Under the pieces are notes generated by a model that did no database searches, had not been told where the DNA came from, and saw nothing but the letters and a program-made list of their open reading frames with translations. The translations under genes and the position numbers were made by a program. Positions 52 to 6,127 of a stretch of 6,127 nucleotides of DNA are shown piece after piece (the first letter of the stretch is position 1; every line of letters begins with the position of its first letter). Source of the stretch: a virus; the UHGV virus genome UHGV-0207966. One strand, written 5' to 3'.

Positions 52-720
52 TCACCCCCAATCCTGCCGGTATCGGTTCATCACTGCGTAAGTATCATAA
101 CTGTCATACAGCGCAGGGGAGTGGAACCAGAAAAACCGTTTAATACTGCTGGCAACAACCTCGCCATCTACCTCCCGGGCATTTTTCGCATCAATCAGGG
201 CATTAACCTGTATACAGCGGAGCATGGTACGGCAGGCAACCGCATAGCGGAATTGCTCACGGAACGGTTTCGCGATACGGCTGAATACCTGGGATGTCCC
301 CACGATATGCTTGCGCTGTTTCCGCTGCTGGGAAACTACCGTGAAGATATTGCTATCCATCTTTTTCGATTCCAGGGAATTAAATTCCAGGTGTATCTCA
401 TCTATCAGGTATATCACCCCGGCATAGCCATTATTGATATCTGTGAAACAGTGGACACCATCCCAGGGATATACCTCAATACCCTCAGGCAGTTTCAGAT
501 CCATGTTACTACATACCTTCACCTGGGGATACAACTCACATAGTCGCTGGACATACTGAACAGCACTGATTGTCTTACCAGCACCCTGCATCCCACAAAA
601 AACAATAATCCCATCCGGGTCAAAATACTCAGGATGCTGTTTACGGAACTCTTTGTTATACTTCCAGACCTTAAACACATTCCCAATGTCCAGGGAACCC
701 ATATACCATTTAAAAGACAT
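52..720 (-). CDS. Zot / gene-I (pI)-family P-loop NTPase, the inovirus assembly ATPase. It is 222 aa and comprises only the cytoplasmic ATPase domain, with no TM segment.
   Basis: The Walker A motif is GMQGAGKT (aa 43-50) and the Walker B motif is VIYLIDEIH (aa 102-110). The inter-motif segment KVCSNMDLKLPEG and the post-Walker-B segment DEIHLEFNSLESK resemble M13 pI (KIATNLDLRLQNLP and DECGTWFNTRSW, as recalled). The start was chosen at ATG 718..720 because GGAGG sits 5 nt upstream. The ORF-track start at 750 is a GTG with no Shine-Dalgarno. Confidence 0.72.
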   Translation of the reverse strand: MSFKWYMGSLDIGNVFKVWKYNKEFRKQHPEYFDPDGIIVFCGMQGAGKTISAVQYVQRLCELYPQVKVCSNMDLKLPEGIEVYPWDGVHCFTDINNGYAGVIYLIDEIHLEFNSLESKKMDSNIFTVVSQQRKQRKHIVGTSQVFSRIAKPFREQFRYAVACRTMLRCIQVNALIDAKNAREVDGEVVASSIKRFFWFHSPALYDSYDTYAVMNRYRQDWG

Positions 721-794: not shown

Positions 795-828
795 AAAATA
801 AAAAAAGGGAGTGGCCACCGCCACCCCC
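795..828 (-). terminator. Rho-independent terminator ending the coat-gene transcript
   Basis: The minus-strand RNA reads GGGGGUGGC-GGUG-GCCACUCCC. This is a 9-bp stem with one G-U pair and a 4-nt loop, followed immediately by UUUUUUUAUUUU. The hairpin begins 9 nt after the coat TAG stop. Confidence 0.65.
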
Positions 829-837
829 AACCCTGAG

Positions 838-1125
838 CTACATGGACACCTTACCTTTACGGAATGCTGCCATAAGGGTACGGACTGCCTTGCGACCGCC
901 CCACCACATGAACACCAGGCCAATGCCAGCGCCTATGGCTGTAGCAATCACACCGACCACGGTTGTTACGGATATTTGTCCTGTCATGGCTGTGATGATA
1001 GGCGCCCAATCCGTGGATGTGACAGTACTGGCTTCAGATGCCAAAGCCGGAAAAGATGAAACTGCCATAAGACCAGTAGCGACCGGGAGAGTGCCATACT
1101 TCTTTAAAGACTGATACAACTTCAC
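838..1125 (-). CDS. Major coat protein precursor (pVIII-type): signal peptide plus about 66-aa mature protein
   Basis: The GTG start has a perfect Shine-Dalgarno (GAAAGGAGGATTTAAG-GTG). The N-terminal signal peptide ends ...SSFPALA|SEAST, an AxA cleavage site. The mature protein has an acidic N-terminus (SEASTVTSTDW), a single hydrophobic helix (VVGVIATAIGAGIGLVFMWW) and a basic C-terminus (GRKAVRTLMAAFRKGKVSM). A strong terminator follows directly, as after gene VIII in Ff phages. Confidence 0.65.
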   Translation of the reverse strand: MKLYQSLKKYGTLPVATGLMAVSSFPALASEASTVTSTDWAPIITAMTGQISVTTVVGVIATAIGAGIGLVFMWWGGRKAVRTLMAAFRKGKVSM

Positions 1126-1415: not shown

Positions 1416-1444
1416 AATATACAAAAATCTGAAATCATGGTAAA
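1416..1444 (-). promoter_or_regulatory. Sigma70-like promoter for the 77-aa/coat transcription unit
   Basis: The minus strand reads TTTACC-N17-TGTATATT. The -35 is the rev-comp of 1439..1444 and the -10 is the rev-comp of 1416..1421, with a TG immediately upstream. The predicted start lies about 35 nt before the ATG at 1374. Confidence 0.35.
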
Positions 1445-1574
1445 ATAGTTGTACCCCTACACCTATTCGGAATGACTCAGATTTTCGGAAGGTTACCAAT
1501 GCACCTACAACAACCACTTTGACATTTGGGGATTAAAGGTTACTCCCCTGGAATACCCTCAGTATATCACATGA

Positions 1575-1600
1575 GGGGATTAACCGTCAATCCCTTTTTT
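1575..1600 (+). promoter_or_regulatory. Inverted repeat GGGGATT-N7-AATCCCT followed by TTTTTT, immediately upstream of the RHH gene's Shine-Dalgarno; candidate operator or leader attenuator
   Basis: The 7-bp arms at 1575..1581 and 1588..1594 are followed by a T-run at 1595..1600. GGGGATTAA also occurs as a direct repeat at 1528..1536, 47 nt upstream. A TTGACA hexamer lies at 1519..1524. Confidence 0.3.
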
Positions 1601-1611
1601 GAGGAGAAATT

Positions 1612-1818
1612 ATGCCAACAAAAAAACCCAAAGTACAAATTATATTAGACGAAAACATTTATCAAAAATTAAAGGATATAGCAGAACAAGACAAAAGAAG
1701 CATAAGCCAAATGGGAAGTATAATAATCGAAAACTATATCAAAAATTTTGAAGCCCAACAGAACCGGGCAGAACAGAAGGGTAAGCTGGAAAAGTCATCT
1801 ATCTCAAGGACTGGTTAA
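1612..1818 (+). CDS. Ribbon-helix-helix (Arc/MetJ/CopG-like) transcriptional regulator, 68 aa, divergent from the structural genes
   Basis: GAGGAG Shine-Dalgarno 7 nt before the ATG. A basic N-terminus leads into an alternating-hydrophobic beta-strand (KVQIILDE). Helix A is NIYQKLKDIAEQD. The turn KRSISQ resembles the GRSVNS turn of Arc. Helix B is MGSIIIENYIKNF. Confidence 0.72.
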   Translation: MPTKKPKVQIILDENIYQKLKDIAEQDKRSISQMGSIIIENYIKNFEAQQNRAEQKGKLEKSSISRTG

Positions 1819-1835
1819 AGAAACTCATGATAAAA

Positions 1836-1857
1836 CGGAGCAGTACACGCTGCTCCG
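1836..1857 (+). other. Perfect 8-bp hairpin (CGGAGCAG-uacacg-CUGCUCCG) between the RHH gene and the micro-ORF
   Basis: Read directly from the sequence. No U-run follows it. The left arm carries GGAG and the right arm CUCC, and the genuine Shine-Dalgarno AAGGAG lies 4 nt downstream. Confidence 0.4.
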
Positions 1858-1873
1858 CTGGAAGGAGAATACT

Positions 1874-1954
1874 ATGAATATTGAATCACCAAACTTTTGG
1901 ATTGCCGTCTTTATTATCGCAACTATTATCGGAATCATAATAAAGAAAAAATGA
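1874..1954 (+). CDS. 26-aa hydrophobic micro-protein (MNIESPNFWIAVFIIATIIGIIIKKK): a single TM helix with a KKK tail. It may be a pVII/pIX-like minor virion protein or a type-I-toxin-like peptide.
   Basis: ATG with GGAAGGAG 6 nt upstream. The hydrophobic core is uninterrupted and the C-terminus is basic. The longer 68-aa ORF in the track starts at a TTG with no Shine-Dalgarno and overlaps the RHH gene. Confidence 0.4.
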   Translation: MNIESPNFWIAVFIIATIIGIIIKKK

Positions 1955-2056
1955 TAGCATTCGTAAAAGCCATCACCTGTATACAAAGCAGGGCTAATTC
2001 AATATGCGTATATTGCCGTTGACATGGGGAATTAAGCCAGAACCATATTCTTTTCA

Positions 2057-2227
2057 TCATTGATTCCCCCTTTTCCTCTTACCAATAATAAGAGATGCAA
2101 TCGACACAATATCATCAAAGATATGTTTAGAAAGCAAACCCATAAAGAACCCCAATACCATTGCAACCAAGAAAAGGAAAAGCAATAATAAATAACACGT
2201 TGATACAAATACTGTTAATGAATCCAT
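2057..2227 (-). CDS. 56-aa small membrane protein with a basic C-terminus (…IGKRKRGNQ); candidate minor coat or assembly protein
   Basis: The internal ATG at 2225..2227 has AAGGGGGTGA 4 nt upstream. The ORF-track start at 2251 has no Shine-Dalgarno. The hydrophobic stretch is LTVFVSTCYLLLLFLFLVAMVLGFFMGLL, followed by an amphipathic segment and a KRKR tail. Confidence 0.5.
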   Translation of the reverse strand: MDSLTVFVSTCYLLLLFLFLVAMVLGFFMGLLSKHIFDDIVSIASLIIGKRKRGNQ

Positions 2228-2272
2228 AAAATCACCCCCTTGACAAACCAATATTTATAAGCTACACTGATA

Positions 2273-3100
2273 TCAAACCTCATATATATTAACTGATTGG
2301 GTCATGTCCCCATAACATACTTGCGAAACCTTCTTGAACCTTGAACTGTCATCCAGTTCCTGAGACAGGATAAAACGGTCTGTAGCATCCAGGGTAAAAA
2401 CCTCTTCCAAAGGCAAAACCAAATTCCTGGAACACCAATAACGCTTCCTACCATGCAGACCATTTAACATATCTTTCGTAATGTACTTTGTTATGTAGGA
2501 CGTGACCTTTTCCATCTCCCTGACCTTTGTTGCTGTCATCCAACCTAACTTATAGCTGCCTATTTTATATATCTTTTCTTTCGTCCGTACAAACTTACTT
2601 CTAAGCCCTCGAACCCTCTTTACAACATACTTACCAGTCCATACTATCTGACGTTCATTAATCCCACTAAATAATCCATGAAAATGATATGCACCATCCT
2701 TATGTTGTTCAGGCACAACCAGATAGGAGAGAGCAGGAGAGGAACGCTTTAGATTATTAAACCATTTACTGAGATACTTTGTACATTCATCATAATCATA
2801 TCGATTCACTTTATCAGGACTGAAAGTAAAAGTAACAAACCATTCCCATTCATTTGATTTAGCATAATCATAGACTTTTTTTCTTGTCCTTTTTATACTC
2901 ACCTCATCCACATGATTTTTATAATCCTTTATATCAACCAATATATCCTTACACACTTTACCATCAAACGGATTACGATCACCCCCATTACGGGGCCGTA
3001 CAGGGATACTTAAATCATCACTACCAATCGTATTCTGATAGATACGGTATTGTTTAGTAAGGTCAGGATAAGTGATTATCTTCACATTATATGGTTCCAT
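2273..3100 (-). CDS. Rolling-circle replication initiator (HUH endonuclease, superfamily-I Rep; analog of inovirus gene II / phiX174 A)
   Basis: Motif I is EWFVTFTF (aa 86-93). Motif II is AYHFHGLF (an HUH motif, aa 138-145). Motif III is YITKYITKD (aa 202-210); its two tyrosines are 4 residues apart, as in phiX174 A (YVAKYVNK). ATG start with a G-rich Shine-Dalgarno. Confidence 0.85.
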   Translation of the reverse strand: MEPYNVKIITYPDLTKQYRIYQNTIGSDDLSIPVRPRNGGDRNPFDGKVCKDILVDIKDYKNHVDEVSIKRTRKKVYDYAKSNEWEWFVTFTFSPDKVNRYDYDECTKYLSKWFNNLKRSSPALSYLVVPEQHKDGAYHFHGLFSGINERQIVWTGKYVVKRVRGLRSKFVRTKEKIYKIGSYKLGWMTATKVREMEKVTSYITKYITKDMLNGLHGRKRYWCSRNLVLPLEEVFTLDATDRFILSQELDDSSRFKKVSQVCYGDMTQSVNIYEV

Positions 3101-3153
3101 ATGACCCCCTGTTTTTATAAAAATGAGTGTTAAGTGTTTATACTGTCAAGTAA

Positions 3154-3193
3154 TGGCTACCGGACCGCACCGCTGGTGCGGTTCCGGCAGCCA
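3154..3193. repeat. GC-rich imperfect inverted repeat (hairpin of about 16 bp) in the intergenic region between the pVI-like gene and rep
   Basis: TGGCTACCGGACCGCACC-gct-GGTGCGGTTCCGGCAGCCA, with one mismatch and a 1-nt bulge. It is far more GC-rich than the flanking sequence. The TTGACA hexamer upstream of rep lies just beyond it. Confidence 0.5.
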
Positions 3194-3203
3194 TGCCAAC
3201 CAC

Positions 3204-3476
3204 TCACTCAATCCCAAGGAAAGGAATCTTCCGCAACACATACATCACAATCTTATAGACCTTCTCAAAATTCGCTACAACAATCACGAATGGCAACATG
3301 ATTTTCACCAGATCCATATTAAAGAACAGAAATACAAACCCAAGACCAGCGCGCATATATTGAAAGAGAGAACCCACTACCGTCTGTATCTCCGCTGGCA
3401 GCTCCGGAAGGTTAATCCATCCAAATATCAGTTTCAGGGCGGAAGAGAAGAGGTCAAACACACTTTCCAGAATCAA
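3204..3476 (-). CDS. 90-aa polytopic hydrophobic protein, pVI-like minor coat / membrane protein
   Basis: The TTG start overlaps the TGA stop of the upstream gene (A-TTG-A). GAGGTGA lies 7 nt upstream. There are two or three predicted TM helices (LGFVFLFFNMDLVKIMLPFVIVVANF and others). It sits directly after the pIII-like gene, as gene VI follows gene III in Ff. Confidence 0.55.
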   Translation of the reverse strand: MILESVFDLFSSALKLIFGWINLPELPAEIQTVVGSLFQYMRAGLGFVFLFFNMDLVKIMLPFVIVVANFEKVYKIVMYVLRKIPFLGIE

Positions 3477-4867
3477 TTCATCATCACCTCATTCCATTTT
3501 TCCTCACATAGCTGTACAAACGCCATCACTAAATAGATACTTGTTACGGTCTTGATTGCCACAACTACAAAGGAAAAATTAGTATCTAAAAACTCAGTCA
3601 GATTAAACGACATCTCAGGCCATAACAGATTTTCCATGATAGTGAAAGAGGGGAGTACCAGCACACAATCTGTCTGGGATGAATTAACAAAAATATCAAT
3701 GACCTCCAATAGTAAATCAATAGGGAAGGAGAGGAACCCAAACCTTTCACTGAACCAGCTATAGAGGTCATCAAAATAAGCCTTAAAATATTCGTCTGAG
3801 GGAATGAAAAGTTTCTTCAGACCATCAATGATAAAATTTCCATGGGATTCAATAGCAGTAGTGACCTTATTAGTATTGGCATCATCAGCAGCTATGATAT
3901 CATCCGTGTTCGTCCGATCAGCTTCCAATTGTTCGGTATGCTGAGTATTCATTTTGTTATATAGGTTTGTAAATTCCCCGGCAAGCTGATTCCAAAAGGC
4001 CGTAAGCTGGCTTGATATAGTCTGTGTCACGTTGACTATCTGGTCAATGATTGTATCCTGTTTTTCAACCATCTGTGCCGTGTTATCCGCAACAACGTCC
4101 GAAGAATCATAACCAGTATTACCAGACACAGGAATGTCAGCATTGTTTTTAAAATAGAAATCAAAAGATAAATCCGATATATCAAACGTTGTGTTAACAC
4201 CTTTTTTTAAGGCTAAACCAATATTAACACGGATAGAAGTACGAGTTAATTTTACATTACCTTTAACAACATAAGATTCCCCTGTATTGGTATATGACAA
4301 ACCAGTCGTAGCAAAAGCCGATTCCGTTACATTTTGTGCAGATTCATACACCTCACAAAAGCCAGAAGTTACATATTCGCCAAAATCTATATTACCCTGC
4401 AAAAATGTTGCTGTAACACCATAAGTAGCACTTGTTTTAGGTAAACCAGACTTATACACTTGCGCATACAATAAATCAGGATAATAACCAGATGCAGGAG
4501 GACTAAATCTATAAAACCCACCTGTATATACAGCATTCACCCACTTTAATGTACCAGCAGAATTACGATACCGGACACGGTACACATAATCCGTACCATA
4601 TACAAGACCATCACCAGACGACAAGAGCATAGGAGCATTTAGGTCGTCAAATGCATCAGATTCCATATATTCATCCATAGGTGTTGCATTATTTGGTGAT
4701 GCAATTAAAACATCCTTATCCAAAGATTCGACAAAATTCGAGTAGGCACCCGAGGGCCGTGCTTCAGAAGGAGTAGCGGTTGACGCATAAATGGTCAGAG
4801 GAAATAAAAGGACAATAACCAGGGAAAAACTCAATGAAAGGATTTTACGCAGCTTTGCAGCAGACAT
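3473..4867 (-). CDS. 464-aa secreted protein with a C-terminal membrane anchor; pIII-like adsorption / minor coat protein
   Basis: ATG 4865..4867 with GGAGGTG 6 nt upstream. The track's TTG at 4882 was rejected as the start. The signal peptide is MSAAKLRKILSLSFSLVIVLLFPLTIYAS. A Tyr/Gly/Thr-rich beta-type N-terminal region is followed by a central helical, coiled-coil-like segment (QDTIIDQIVNVTQTISSQLTAFWNQLAGEF). The C-terminal hydrophobic anchor is FSFVVVAIKTVTSIYLVMAFVQL. Confidence 0.6.
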   Translation of the reverse strand: MSAAKLRKILSLSFSLVIVLLFPLTIYASTATPSEARPSGAYSNFVESLDKDVLIASPNNATPMDEYMESDAFDDLNAPMLLSSGDGLVYGTDYVYRVRYRNSAGTLKWVNAVYTGGFYRFSPPASGYYPDLLYAQVYKSGLPKTSATYGVTATFLQGNIDFGEYVTSGFCEVYESAQNVTESAFATTGLSYTNTGESYVVKGNVKLTRTSIRVNIGLALKKGVNTTFDISDLSFDFYFKNNADIPVSGNTGYDSSDVVADNTAQMVEKQDTIIDQIVNVTQTISSQLTAFWNQLAGEFTNLYNKMNTQHTEQLEADRTNTDDIIAADDANTNKVTTAIESHGNFIIDGLKKLFIPSDEYFKAYFDDLYSWFSERFGFLSFPIDLLLEVIDIFVNSSQTDCVLVLPSFTIMENLLWPEMSFNLTEFLDTNFSFVVVAIKTVTSIYLVMAFVQLCEEKWNEVMMN

Positions 4868-4913
4868 GGGGCACACCTCCAACTATTCGCGAAAGTCTAG
4901 TAATCAGTAAGTA

Positions 4914-5239: not shown

Positions 5240-6046
5240 TCATATCCGCATACGGCCCGGGCTGAACAGGGAGCGGTAAATTACAAACAGCAACGCAACC
5301 CCGGCAAAAAAAATCATAAGCCAATAATAAGTAGCCTCACTCTGGAGCATGGGATAACCCTCAAGGTCACTGTACACAATATAGTTATTGGCCTGGAGCC
5401 GGAAAGAACCTTCCGACCCAGAAGTCCAGGTATAATACCTGGAATCATAAGCAACATACTGCGCATCCTCAGCCGTGAACGTAGTACCGTTACAGACCAT
5501 ATCCTTTGCATAAACCAGACGGTAAGCGTACTGACCATGACGGAAAAGCACGTAATGGACGTTTCCCAGCTTTGGAAGCACATCAGACATATAAGTTACC
5601 ACCGTAGTAGAAATGGACGAATCATAGGGTGTATACGAACTGTAAACCACAGGGGAACTGATATTCATGATATTAGCTACCGTTTTCGCTTTGTTCCGTT
5701 CAGCATTAGAAGGACTAGCAATGCGAGCATTAGAGCCAGAAGCAATAGCAACATCCTCCATGTAATCATCATCCTCATCATCAGCCATATCATCCTCATA
5801 CTCATCACCCTCCGCTAACTCAGGATACAGGATTTCCATTATCTGCTGATACTGATCAAAATCCATATCCTCATCAGGGACACTGGAAAGCCATCCATTC
5901 ACATCATCCTGCGCAGCCTGAGGATATCCCTCAGGAGCCATAAAATCCTCCTCAGTGAGCGTATACTCACCCGCATAAGACCGAAAACAGTATAGAGCAC
6001 ACAGAACCAAACAAAGTAATACACAATACATCCTCCTCCATATCAT
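5240..6046 (-). CDS. 268-aa secreted protein with a strongly acidic N-terminal region and a C-terminal membrane anchor; second adsorption/minor-coat-like protein
   Basis: ATG with GAGGGGA 9 nt upstream. The signal peptide is MIWRRMYCVLLCLVLCALYCFRSYA. A D/E-rich tract spans aa 31-98 and includes DDMADDEDDDYMED. A Tyr-rich beta-type domain follows. The C-terminal TM is YYWLMIFFAGVALLFVIYRSLF, with a basic tail. Confidence 0.6.
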   Translation of the reverse strand: MIWRRMYCVLLCLVLCALYCFRSYAGEYTLTEEDFMAPEGYPQAAQDDVNGWLSSVPDEDMDFDQYQQIMEILYPELAEGDEYEDDMADDEDDDYMEDVAIASGSNARIASPSNAERNKAKTVANIMNISSPVVYSSYTPYDSSISTTVVTYMSDVLPKLGNVHYVLFRHGQYAYRLVYAKDMVCNGTTFTAEDAQYVAYDSRYYTWTSGSEGSFRLQANNYIVYSDLEGYPMLQSEATYYWLMIFFAGVALLFVIYRSLFSPGRMRI

Positions 6047-6061
6047 AAGCGCACATCCCCT

Positions 6062-6127
6062 CTAAAGGCCATCCCAAGGAACAATGTAACAATCCGCTGT
6101 CCCAGGGCAAAGACAATCGCATAAGGC
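6062..6127 (-). CDS. C-terminal 21 codons (…ALCDCLCPGTADCYIVPWDGL*) of an upstream gene that enters the window from beyond its end
   Basis: An open minus-strand frame runs from 6127 to a TAG at 6062..6064. That stop overlaps the Shine-Dalgarno of the 268-aa gene, so the arrangement looks coupled. Confidence 0.25.
   Translation of the reverse strand, partial: ALCDCLCPGTADCYIVPWDGL

Follow-up and report, generated by a model that had tools for sequence, protein, structure and literature searches.

What does a 26-codon open reading frame (ORF) specify when it lies directly behind the regulator gene of a small filamentous phage, and what is the role of the hairpin that separates the two? The question is raised by positions 1819 to 1954 of the virus genome UHGV-0207966, the 6,127-base stretch of DNA that was analyzed here in full and is called the window, a circularly permuted genome of a small inovirus of the Enterocloster citroniae type. 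An earlier note, made from the letters alone, had described at this place a hydrophobic peptide of 26 amino acids (aa) with a strong Shine-Dalgarno (SD) sequence, had compared it with the Ff phage proteins pVII and pIX and with type I toxins, and had suggested that the hairpin, with GGAG in one arm and CUCC in the other, could gate translation. Comparison of the window with its relatives indicates that the ORF is, with high probability, a real gene encoding a very small membrane peptide and that the hairpin is best read as a predicted intrinsic terminator of the convergent operon that includes the gene for the rolling-circle replication protein (Rep). The overall reading favored here, with a probability of roughly 0.55, is that the ORF is truly translated and, as the gene of a single-pass membrane peptide, occupies an accessory slot of the lysogeny (regulator) operon and supplies the lysogen with a membrane effector.

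The predicted peptide, MNIESPNFWIAVFIIATIIGIIIKKK, has a polar N terminus, a hydrophobic stretch from W9 to I23, and a KKK tail; the mean hydropathy of a 15-residue segment reaches 2.97. When the sequence downstream of the fixed ATG was shuffled 20,000 times, ORFs of at least 26 codons that included a 15-residue stretch with a hydropathy of at least 2.5 were recovered at P = 0.00075, so that an ORF of this length with a hydrophobic stretch of transmembrane (TM) grade exceeds what chance would supply. The layout and coordinates of the elements given in the earlier note also hold, with the exception of the distance of 4 nucleotides (nt) between hairpin and SD: GGAAGGAG begins 2 nt past the 3' arm, and its GGAG core (1864-1867) begins 6 nt past it. 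The ORF lies on the strand opposite the Zot, coat, Rep, and pIII-like genes and directly follows the gene of a 68-aa ribbon-helix-helix (RHH) regulator; these two are all that the plus strand encodes.

The same reading frame is open upstream (1748-1954, plus strand) to a TTG inside the regulator gene, which is an ATG in other regulator alleles. A longer protein of 68 aa starting from TTG 1748 was considered and rejected: this start has no SD, is an accident of the Y-E/F-E codons of the regulator, and would require reading through the hairpin. The protein database nevertheless lists the ORFs found at this position as proteins of 68 to 82 aa (P0001-P0003) that start in frame inside the regulator gene and read through the hairpin; these entries are probably misannotations that hide micropeptides. 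An ORF of 26 aa is presumably below the length that gene callers usually report. Both the repressor and the 26-aa ORF are absent from the published annotation of the E. citroniae phage (Table S5, PMC10061712).

The relatives of the window, chosen by Rep and then compared with it by blastn, show that the ORF marks a site of replacement. Homology with three of them (L001, L002, and L003) breaks at 1877/1878, that is, at the ATG, and resumes between 2130 and 2253. Apart from one chance match, a search for the junction pattern GGAGCAG-N6-CTGCTCCG-NN-GGAAGGAG retrieved 14 contigs from gut metagenomes, 5 viral contigs, and one genome of Enterocloster aldenensis. The hairpin, the SD, and the ATG are the same in all of some 20 related prophages and contigs from metagenomes; what follows the ATG comes in five forms, the last of which came to light when the upstream extension of the frame was used to query the protein database. 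Allele A (26 aa) is intact in the window and 12 further loci, with A11T and V12I as the only changes; alleles B (49 aa; MISLITKFITFATQDMTHIILCLFGIILVITLFLGLFTLIKNFIYNHIH), C (40 aa; MKQKIFLIILSLLGLLLVGLIAHWIMTDFLSFQWLQKLIK), D (37 aa; a diverged homolog of B), and E (37 aa; MNTIERLLLIAVMTIIGYFIMKYGFPLIMQFIANLAR) take its place elsewhere. Apart from the homology of B and D, the alleles are unrelated, and each encodes one strongly hydrophobic helix, for which shuffling gives a chance below 0.001 per allele. Thus, both the hairpin and the ORF, the conservation of which the earlier note had proposed to check, are kept, and a well-signaled gene for a small membrane peptide follows the regulator throughout this group.

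The pair of homologous alleles also shows that the slot is under selection at the protein level. B and D are identical at 22 of 36 residues, 12 of which are specified by different codons; the proportion of synonymous differences (pS) is 0.84, that is, saturated, against a proportion of nonsynonymous differences (pN) of 0.26, and this signal is seen in the part that is free of overlap with the minus-strand ORF. The slot is therefore protein coding. Amino acid changes within alleles are all conservative. Peptide B has no relatives outside the phage group, and scans of all peptide alleles and their partner ORFs against Pfam, PHROG, NCBIfam, and PADLOC returned nothing but subthreshold noise. On one metagenome contig (L061, 82-333; P0005), a shared ATTACAAAAT joins regulator allele 3 (up to about residue 41) in frame with peptide B (residue 7 onward), with deletion of the linker, hairpin, and SD; the N terminus of B and D (ITKFITFATQD) faintly resembles ITKYINDYEAQQ of the regulator.

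The hairpin lies in the constant linker that joins the two variable genes. Its 8-bp stem is extended to 9 bp by a U1844-G1849 pair, which leaves a loop of 4 nt. The plus-strand fold has a predicted energy of -17 kcal/mol (z = -3.9; none of 200 shuffles was as good), and the minus-strand fold has one of -16.7 to -18 kcal/mol (z = -3.6), with a stem of 9 to 10 bp and a loop of 6 nt. In an alignment of 17 distinct relatives, 8 of the 55 sites in 1819-1873 vary, and none of these is among the 18 nt of the stem or the 8 nt of the SD (P = 0.0035); both middle positions of the loop vary across the relatives, whereas the stem is constant.

Two functions have to be weighed for such a structure. In a translational gate, the CUCC of the 3' arm would alternately pair with the real SD, and opening of the hairpin would switch the peptide off or on. 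The ingredients are indeed in place, with GGAG in one arm, CUCC in the other, and the SD 2 to 6 nt downstream. However, partition-function folding of RNAs that reach from the regulator to the peptide pairs the arms with each other in every allele (P(unpaired) = 0.00) and predicts an SD that is mostly unpaired in allele A; an intramolecular anti-SD switch therefore has no thermodynamic basis. A 4-bp CUCC/GGAG helix across a 7-nt loop cannot compete with a G+C-rich stem of 9 bp, and the regulator stop, 17 nt upstream of the stem, would be too far away for a terminating ribosome to open it, given the known ribosome footprint. As a terminator, the hairpin has to be read on the minus strand, where the stem is followed by UUUUAU in the window, by UUUUUU in most relatives, and by UUUUCU or UUUUU in others. 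The four A residues that adjoin the stem, which are the four proximal U residues of the minus strand, never vary, and the plus strand has no U-tract after the stem. The structure thus combines a G+C-rich stem and a U-tract with a position after the last minus-strand gene, 77 nt past the stop of a 41-aa ORF, and it has equivalents at this position in relatives; in a terminator scan, the copy in L037 was the only terminator-like site of its region.

Distant inoviruses with diverged regulator tails settle the question for the terminator over the gate. In L064, the same octamer, GGAAGGAG, precedes a 27-aa TM ORF (MGKGILIFIIIVSLLITIGPYIINALQ), yet the hairpin right after the regulator stop is unrelated, longer, and G+C rich and contains neither GGAG nor CUCC in its arms. 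L062 carries an unrelated A7-stem-U4 hairpin at the equivalent place. In L063, the 74-aa, tail-anchored TM ORF is not preceded by a hairpin, and a terminator hairpin is found further on, between the convergent units; in L039, an 80-aa TM ORF overlaps the regulator stop and is followed by a plus-strand terminator. The small membrane ORFs that follow the repressor in L064, L063, and L039 are unrelated to those of the window group. What recurs is a predicted terminator that parts the minus-strand operon from the regulator gene, with its sequence and exact place free to change, and a small TM ORF after the regulator recurs irrespective of any hairpin. Because the hairpin is stable, the SD is open, the unrelated hairpin of L064 lacks both motifs, and the minus strand supplies four to six U residues, the structure is best read as the predicted terminator of the Rep operon, and the gate proposed in the earlier note is very improbable. 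The presence of GGAG and CUCC in a hairpin beside an SD is, on its own, no evidence of a translational switch. The hairpin was also considered as an origin or packaging signal and rejected, as a far stronger hairpin is found upstream of Rep.

The DNA on the two sides of the linker recombines independently. At least four alleles of the N-terminal, DNA-binding half of the regulator are found, all with the same C-terminal tail, and allele A of the peptide occurs with four regulator alleles, C with three, and B with two; to judge from these combinations, peptide alleles and DNA-binding alleles are recombining freely. The assignment of the regulator draws on matches to Pfam RHH_5 and to PHROG Arc-like repressor families, which are weak and below the curated cutoffs. 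Inverted repeats that contain GGGGATTAA (1528-1536 and 1575-1583) form operator-like sites that flank the minus-strand promoter-like site and change with the regulator allele: in L060, which carries regulator allele 2, a palindrome, GTGACGTCAC, is found in place of the GGGGATTAA repeats. As far as can be read from the sequence, the pair of promoter-like sites and the swapped operator-like repeats are a heteroimmunity-type module. The promoter-like sites, 1418-1446 on the plus strand and 1561-1590 on the minus strand, face each other with these inverted repeats between them, and the transcripts would overlap by about 100 nt. Two copies depart from the common arrangement: in L057, a 5-nt deletion frameshifts the constant regulator tail to give an 86-aa product that reads through the hairpin, and L046 is a recombinant in which the regulator is disrupted. 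Perhaps the regulator can do without its tail, or perhaps these are defective copies.

Three further roles for the regulator and linker were considered and rejected. A type II antitoxin with the constant tail as the toxin binder does not fit, as the peptide varies, the tail is constant, and the tail is frameshifted in L057. The hairpin is not the operator of the regulator, as the DNA-binding half varies and the hairpin does not. An arbitrium-like signaling peptide would call for a regulator of the receptor type and for covariation of peptide and regulator; the regulator is an RHH protein of 68 aa, not a peptide-binding, tetratricopeptide repeat protein of the RRNPP kind, and the alleles assort independently.

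The favored reading can be put as a scheme. The expression signals come from the linker, in which the hairpin, the SD, and the ATG follow the last codons of the repressor gene, and recombination swaps whatever stands after the ATG. The peptide would be cotranscribed with the RHH repressor, starting at the promoter-like sequence of 1418-1446, with an optimal SD for its translation; being on the repressor transcript, it would be made when virion production is repressed. Transcription of the minus strand, which in the circular form would run from 1590-1561 round through Rep and the 56-aa and 41-aa ORFs, would stop at the hairpin and thus not continue into the repressor gene as antisense. With its 3' end at the hairpin, the RNA of the Rep operon would be complementary to the whole peptide ORF and its SD, so that transcription in the productive phase would silence the peptide by cis-antisense, and a repressed phage would express it. 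Such an expression pattern, a slot that is always filled, and alleles that are unrelated would fit a conflict-type function such as superinfection exclusion; the most likely role of the peptides would be superinfection exclusion or another modulation of the host membrane, under diversifying replacement. More tentatively, and as a possibility that is rather doubted, the linker could be a dedicated exchange point at which gut inoviruses swap unrelated micropeptides, its ribosome-binding site and start codon being fixed on one strand and its terminator on the opposite one; the peptides would be lysogen-specific membrane effectors (determinants of exclusion or addiction), shut off in cis by the antisense 3' end of the replication operon once the phage becomes productive.

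Several observations weigh against parts of this reading. The copies of allele A are nearly identical, with two nonsynonymous changes and no synonymous ones, and give no signal in the ratio of nonsynonymous to synonymous substitution rates (dN/dS), so that selection for coding is extended to allele A from B and D by position and analogy. No stem covariation is seen, as no stem position varies, and the conservation of linker and stem could partly reflect recent shared ancestry or recombinational spread. The U-tract of the window, UUUUAU, narrowly fails the terminator rule of the scan, no terminator was found for the plus-strand transcript, and the promoters are matches to consensus sequences. 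The charge layouts of the peptides differ in the predicted topologies, with KKK at the C terminus of A and KQK at the N terminus of C, which fits poorly with one common molecular target and suggests that the peptides may not share one. Finally, the peptide allele is independent of the variable receptor-binding domain of pIII, and a model of receptor-matched exclusion is accordingly not favored. A link between the peptide allele and the N-terminal domain of pIII was looked for and rejected: the window (allele A) and L001 (allele C) have the same pIII type, and the window and L004, both with allele A, differ in it. This N-terminal part of the pIII-like protein (about 4093-4784, presumed to bind the receptor) is nonhomologous among relatives that are otherwise 85 to 95% identical.

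Other explanations of the ORF can be compared on the same evidence. Bacillus prophages carry type I toxins that are checked by 3'-overlapping antisense RNAs (txpA/RatA and bsrG/SR4), and fst/RNAII is a further system of this kind in Firmicutes. A type-I-toxin-like addiction or abortive module, in which a membrane-damaging peptide is held in check by the convergent antisense RNA and stabilizes the prophage or episome, would account for a small hydrophobic peptide (within the limit of about 60 aa) with a charged tail and a strong SD, borne on a prophage, and for a convergent unit whose predicted terminator just upstream of the peptide SD would produce full antisense overlap; plus- and minus-strand ORFs overlap in every allele. 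The antisense RNA, however, would be the 3' untranslated region (UTR) of a long operon rather than a dedicated small RNA with its own promoter, and no separate antisense promoter-like site was found on the minus strand of 1955-2300. The peptide has no homology to the known toxin and RNA families (no match to a toxin family in Pfam, NCBIfam, or PADLOC, and none to an Rfam antitoxin RNA at E ≤ 1), and it is apparently encoded on the repressor transcript, with the SD predicted to be largely open in allele A, not on a structured, translation-blocked mRNA of its own. A module of this type is judged unlikely. That the ORF is not translated, with 1859-1934 serving as the 3' UTR of the minus-strand operon or as a cis DNA element (origin or packaging signal) and the frame being fortuitous, is less probable still. 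The lack of synonymous variation that would prove coding in allele A, the AT richness of a region in which hydrophobic codons are common, and a possible DNA-level reason for keeping the linker would all suit this explanation, which has to be set against the joint improbability of ORF length and TM-grade segment in each of the five alleles, the protein-level selection on B and D outside the minus-ORF overlap, and an optimal SD at optimal spacing that never varies. For an origin or packaging signal, moreover, the hairpin at 3146-3195 (z = -6.3), upstream of Rep, is the better candidate.

A minor virion protein, functionally equivalent to pVII/pIX of Ff phages at the tip that emerges first, is the remaining explanation. 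In size (26 aa, near the 32 to 33 aa of pVII and pIX), hydrophobicity, and lack of a signal peptide, the peptide resembles these proteins, and the window has no small ORF at the place where they would be expected, only 15 nt separating the ssb-like ORF (1141-1374) from the coat ORF (838-1125); L039 has hydrophobic ORFs of 39 and 46 aa there. It differs from them in genomic place and strand, being encoded opposite the virion genes in the repressor operon, and has no sequence match to them and no structural match in PHROG or Pfam. Furthermore, it is replaced by nonhomologous peptides of 37 to 49 aa in phages whose coat DNA is 91 to 93% and whose Rep protein is 95 to 100% identical, so it is not the plain pVII/pIX homolog inside a virion cluster that would have spoken against the earlier note. 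Other small hydrophobic ORFs on the strand of the virion genes (43 aa after Zot; 56 and 41 aa after Rep) could serve in this capacity. A virion role is thus regarded as quite improbable.

The gene for a lysogen-expressed membrane peptide favored here has partial parallels in known phages. PfsE (PA0721) of the Pseudomonas filamentous phage Pf4, a protein of 30 aa, binds PilC, blocks type IV pili, and prevents superinfection (PMC8764522). Like the window peptide, it is very small and belongs to a temperate filamentous phage, and it acts on the host; unlike the window peptide, whose gene belongs to the repressor operon of the opposite strand, it is encoded in the core gene cluster on the strand of the ssDNA-binding and coat genes. 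PfsE is conserved (at least 66% identity among 312 sequences) and needs a YxWGW motif (PMC8764522), whereas the window peptide is one of several nonhomologous alleles. Direct reading shows that the motif is absent from MNIESPNFWIAVFIIATIIGIIIKKK, and the host of the window phage is a monoderm relative of Clostridium, unlike the Pseudomonas host of PfsE. A second parallel is with the morons of immunity regions, such as lambda cI-rexA-rexB, P22 sieB, and lactococcal Sie2009, which encode proteins of about 140 to 280 aa in tailed phages. Here too, a gene for a membrane protein lies just downstream of the prophage repressor, so that it is expressed in the lysogen, and varies among related phages, whereas products of the window type have 26 to 49 aa and come as alleles behind a fixed SD and ATG with a fixed, predicted terminator for the opposite strand. 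The heteroimmune modules of CTXphi (rstR and ig-2), by which related filamentous prophages swap repressor and operator within conserved DNA, are matched by the covariation of the N-terminal half of the RHH protein with the operator-like repeats; this likeness concerns the regulator and not the peptide, and no small peptide slot is attached in CTXphi.

The genomic setting is that of a compact inovirus (Table 1). The window proteins match genes 21 to 29 of the Enterocloster citroniae inovirus (Burckhardt et al. 2023, Table S5; PMC10061712), a member of a group of real, secreted phages; before these, secretion from human gut commensals had not been shown for any filamentous phage (PMC10061712). 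Searches of GenBank phages gave no match for the window or the region (megablast and blastn) or for the peptide (tblastn), and no Rfam family matched any part of the window at E ≤ 1. The window is a circular permutation because a 43-aa hydrophobic ORF, gene 21 in PMC10061712, runs across its ends; the stop of this ORF overlaps the ATG of the 268-aa ORF. Integrated copies have their prophage ends at window positions 4873-4901, and about 25 to 29 bp of this sequence are present at both prophage ends in L041, L044, L045, L050, and others; this segment, between the pIII-like gene and an 81-aa ORF, is likely the attachment site. Among the candidates for a replication origin or packaging signal, a G+C-rich hairpin of 19 bp directly upstream of Rep (3146-3195; single-stranded DNA fold of 3101-3210, -28.6 kcal/mol, z = -6.3) ranks first. 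The coat gene is immediately followed by a strong hairpin that resembles a terminator and has a T7 run (807-828, minus strand); it is presumably analogous to the terminator after gene VIII of Ff phages.

Table 1. Features of the window at and around the peptide slot
Feature	Coordinates	Strand	Remarks
26-aa single-pass membrane peptide ORF (allele A), MNIESPNFWIAVFIIATIIGIIIKKK	1874-1954	+	ATG 1874, TGA 1952-1954
SD GGAAGGAG	1860-1867	+	6-nt spacer to ATG 1874
Hairpin CGGAGCAG(U)/(G)CUGCUCCG	arms 1836-1843 / 1850-1857		8-9 bp, loop of 4-6 nt
Predicted intrinsic terminator of the minus-strand (Rep) unit	1830-1858	-	stem, then UUUUAU
68-aa RHH (Arc/CopG-like) regulator	1612-1818	+	stop TAA 1816-1818; C-terminal tail EAQQNRAEQKGKLEKSSISRTG
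Constant linker	1745-1876		regulator tail codons, hairpin, SD, and ATG; common to all close relatives (17 distinct copies aligned)
Hypervariable accessory cassette	1877-2233		between the linker and a constant block at the Rep 3' end; plus-strand peptide slot and convergent minus-strand slot
Promoter-like site TATACA-17-TAAAAT with TG	1418-1446	+	consensus match only; could drive the regulator and peptide transcript
Promoter-like site TTGACG-18-TATACT with TG	1561-1590	-	consensus match only; for the ssb-coat-Zot operon
41-aa ORF MMKRIWFWLNSPCQRQYTHIELALLCIQVMAFTNAIIFSLL	1935-2060	-	SD GGGGG; ATGA overlap with the stop of the 56-aa ORF; unannotated
56-aa single-pass membrane ORF after Rep	2057-2227	-	second variable slot
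Rolling-circle Rep	2273-3100	-	PF23343
ssDNA-binding-like (ssb-like) protein, 77 aa	1141-1374	-	
Major-coat-like protein	838-1125	-	
Zot/pI-type ATPase	52-720	-	without a membrane segment
43-aa hydrophobic ORF MQVAIGLFADVIREAMPYAIVFALGQRIVTLFLGMAFRGDVRL	1-47 joined to 6043-6127	-	spans the window ends; follows Zot
Further minus-strand genes: 90-aa pVI-like, 464-469-aa pIII-like, and 268-aa membrane protein		-	

The cassette also holds a second, convergent slot on the minus strand. Whatever the allele, the stop of the last minus-strand ORF falls within the peptide ORF of the plus strand, some 65 to 95 nt short of the hairpin. In the window, this last ORF is the 41-aa one, which shares 20 nt with the 3' end of the 26-aa ORF and accompanies allele A without exception; between the window and L004, it has nine differences, six of them at third codon positions and four synonymous. 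The place of the 56-aa membrane ORF is taken in relatives by homologs of 60 to 63 aa (with a TM segment), by two-TM proteins of 82 to 93 or 89 aa, or by a soluble protein of 148 aa. A promoter-like TTGACA-17-TACACT (10 of 12 matches; 2240-2268, plus strand) lies in the conserved block that borders the cassette on the right, and L037 has it as well; it would transcribe antisense into Rep and overlaps the SD region of the 56-aa minus-strand ORF.

Small membrane proteins encoded in the immunity region are a known kind of phage gene; what appears to be new is a slot in which they are interchangeable. A slot that is always filled by interchangeable, unrelated micropeptides points to a site of phage-phage or phage-host conflict, and peptides of 26 to 49 aa form a small, tractable set for work on exclusion, toxicity, and membrane signaling in gut bacteria that are genetically difficult. 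If the linker were such a dedicated exchange point, the filamentous phages of Gram-positive gut commensals would possess a compact system of cassettes for small membrane proteins that has not been described before.

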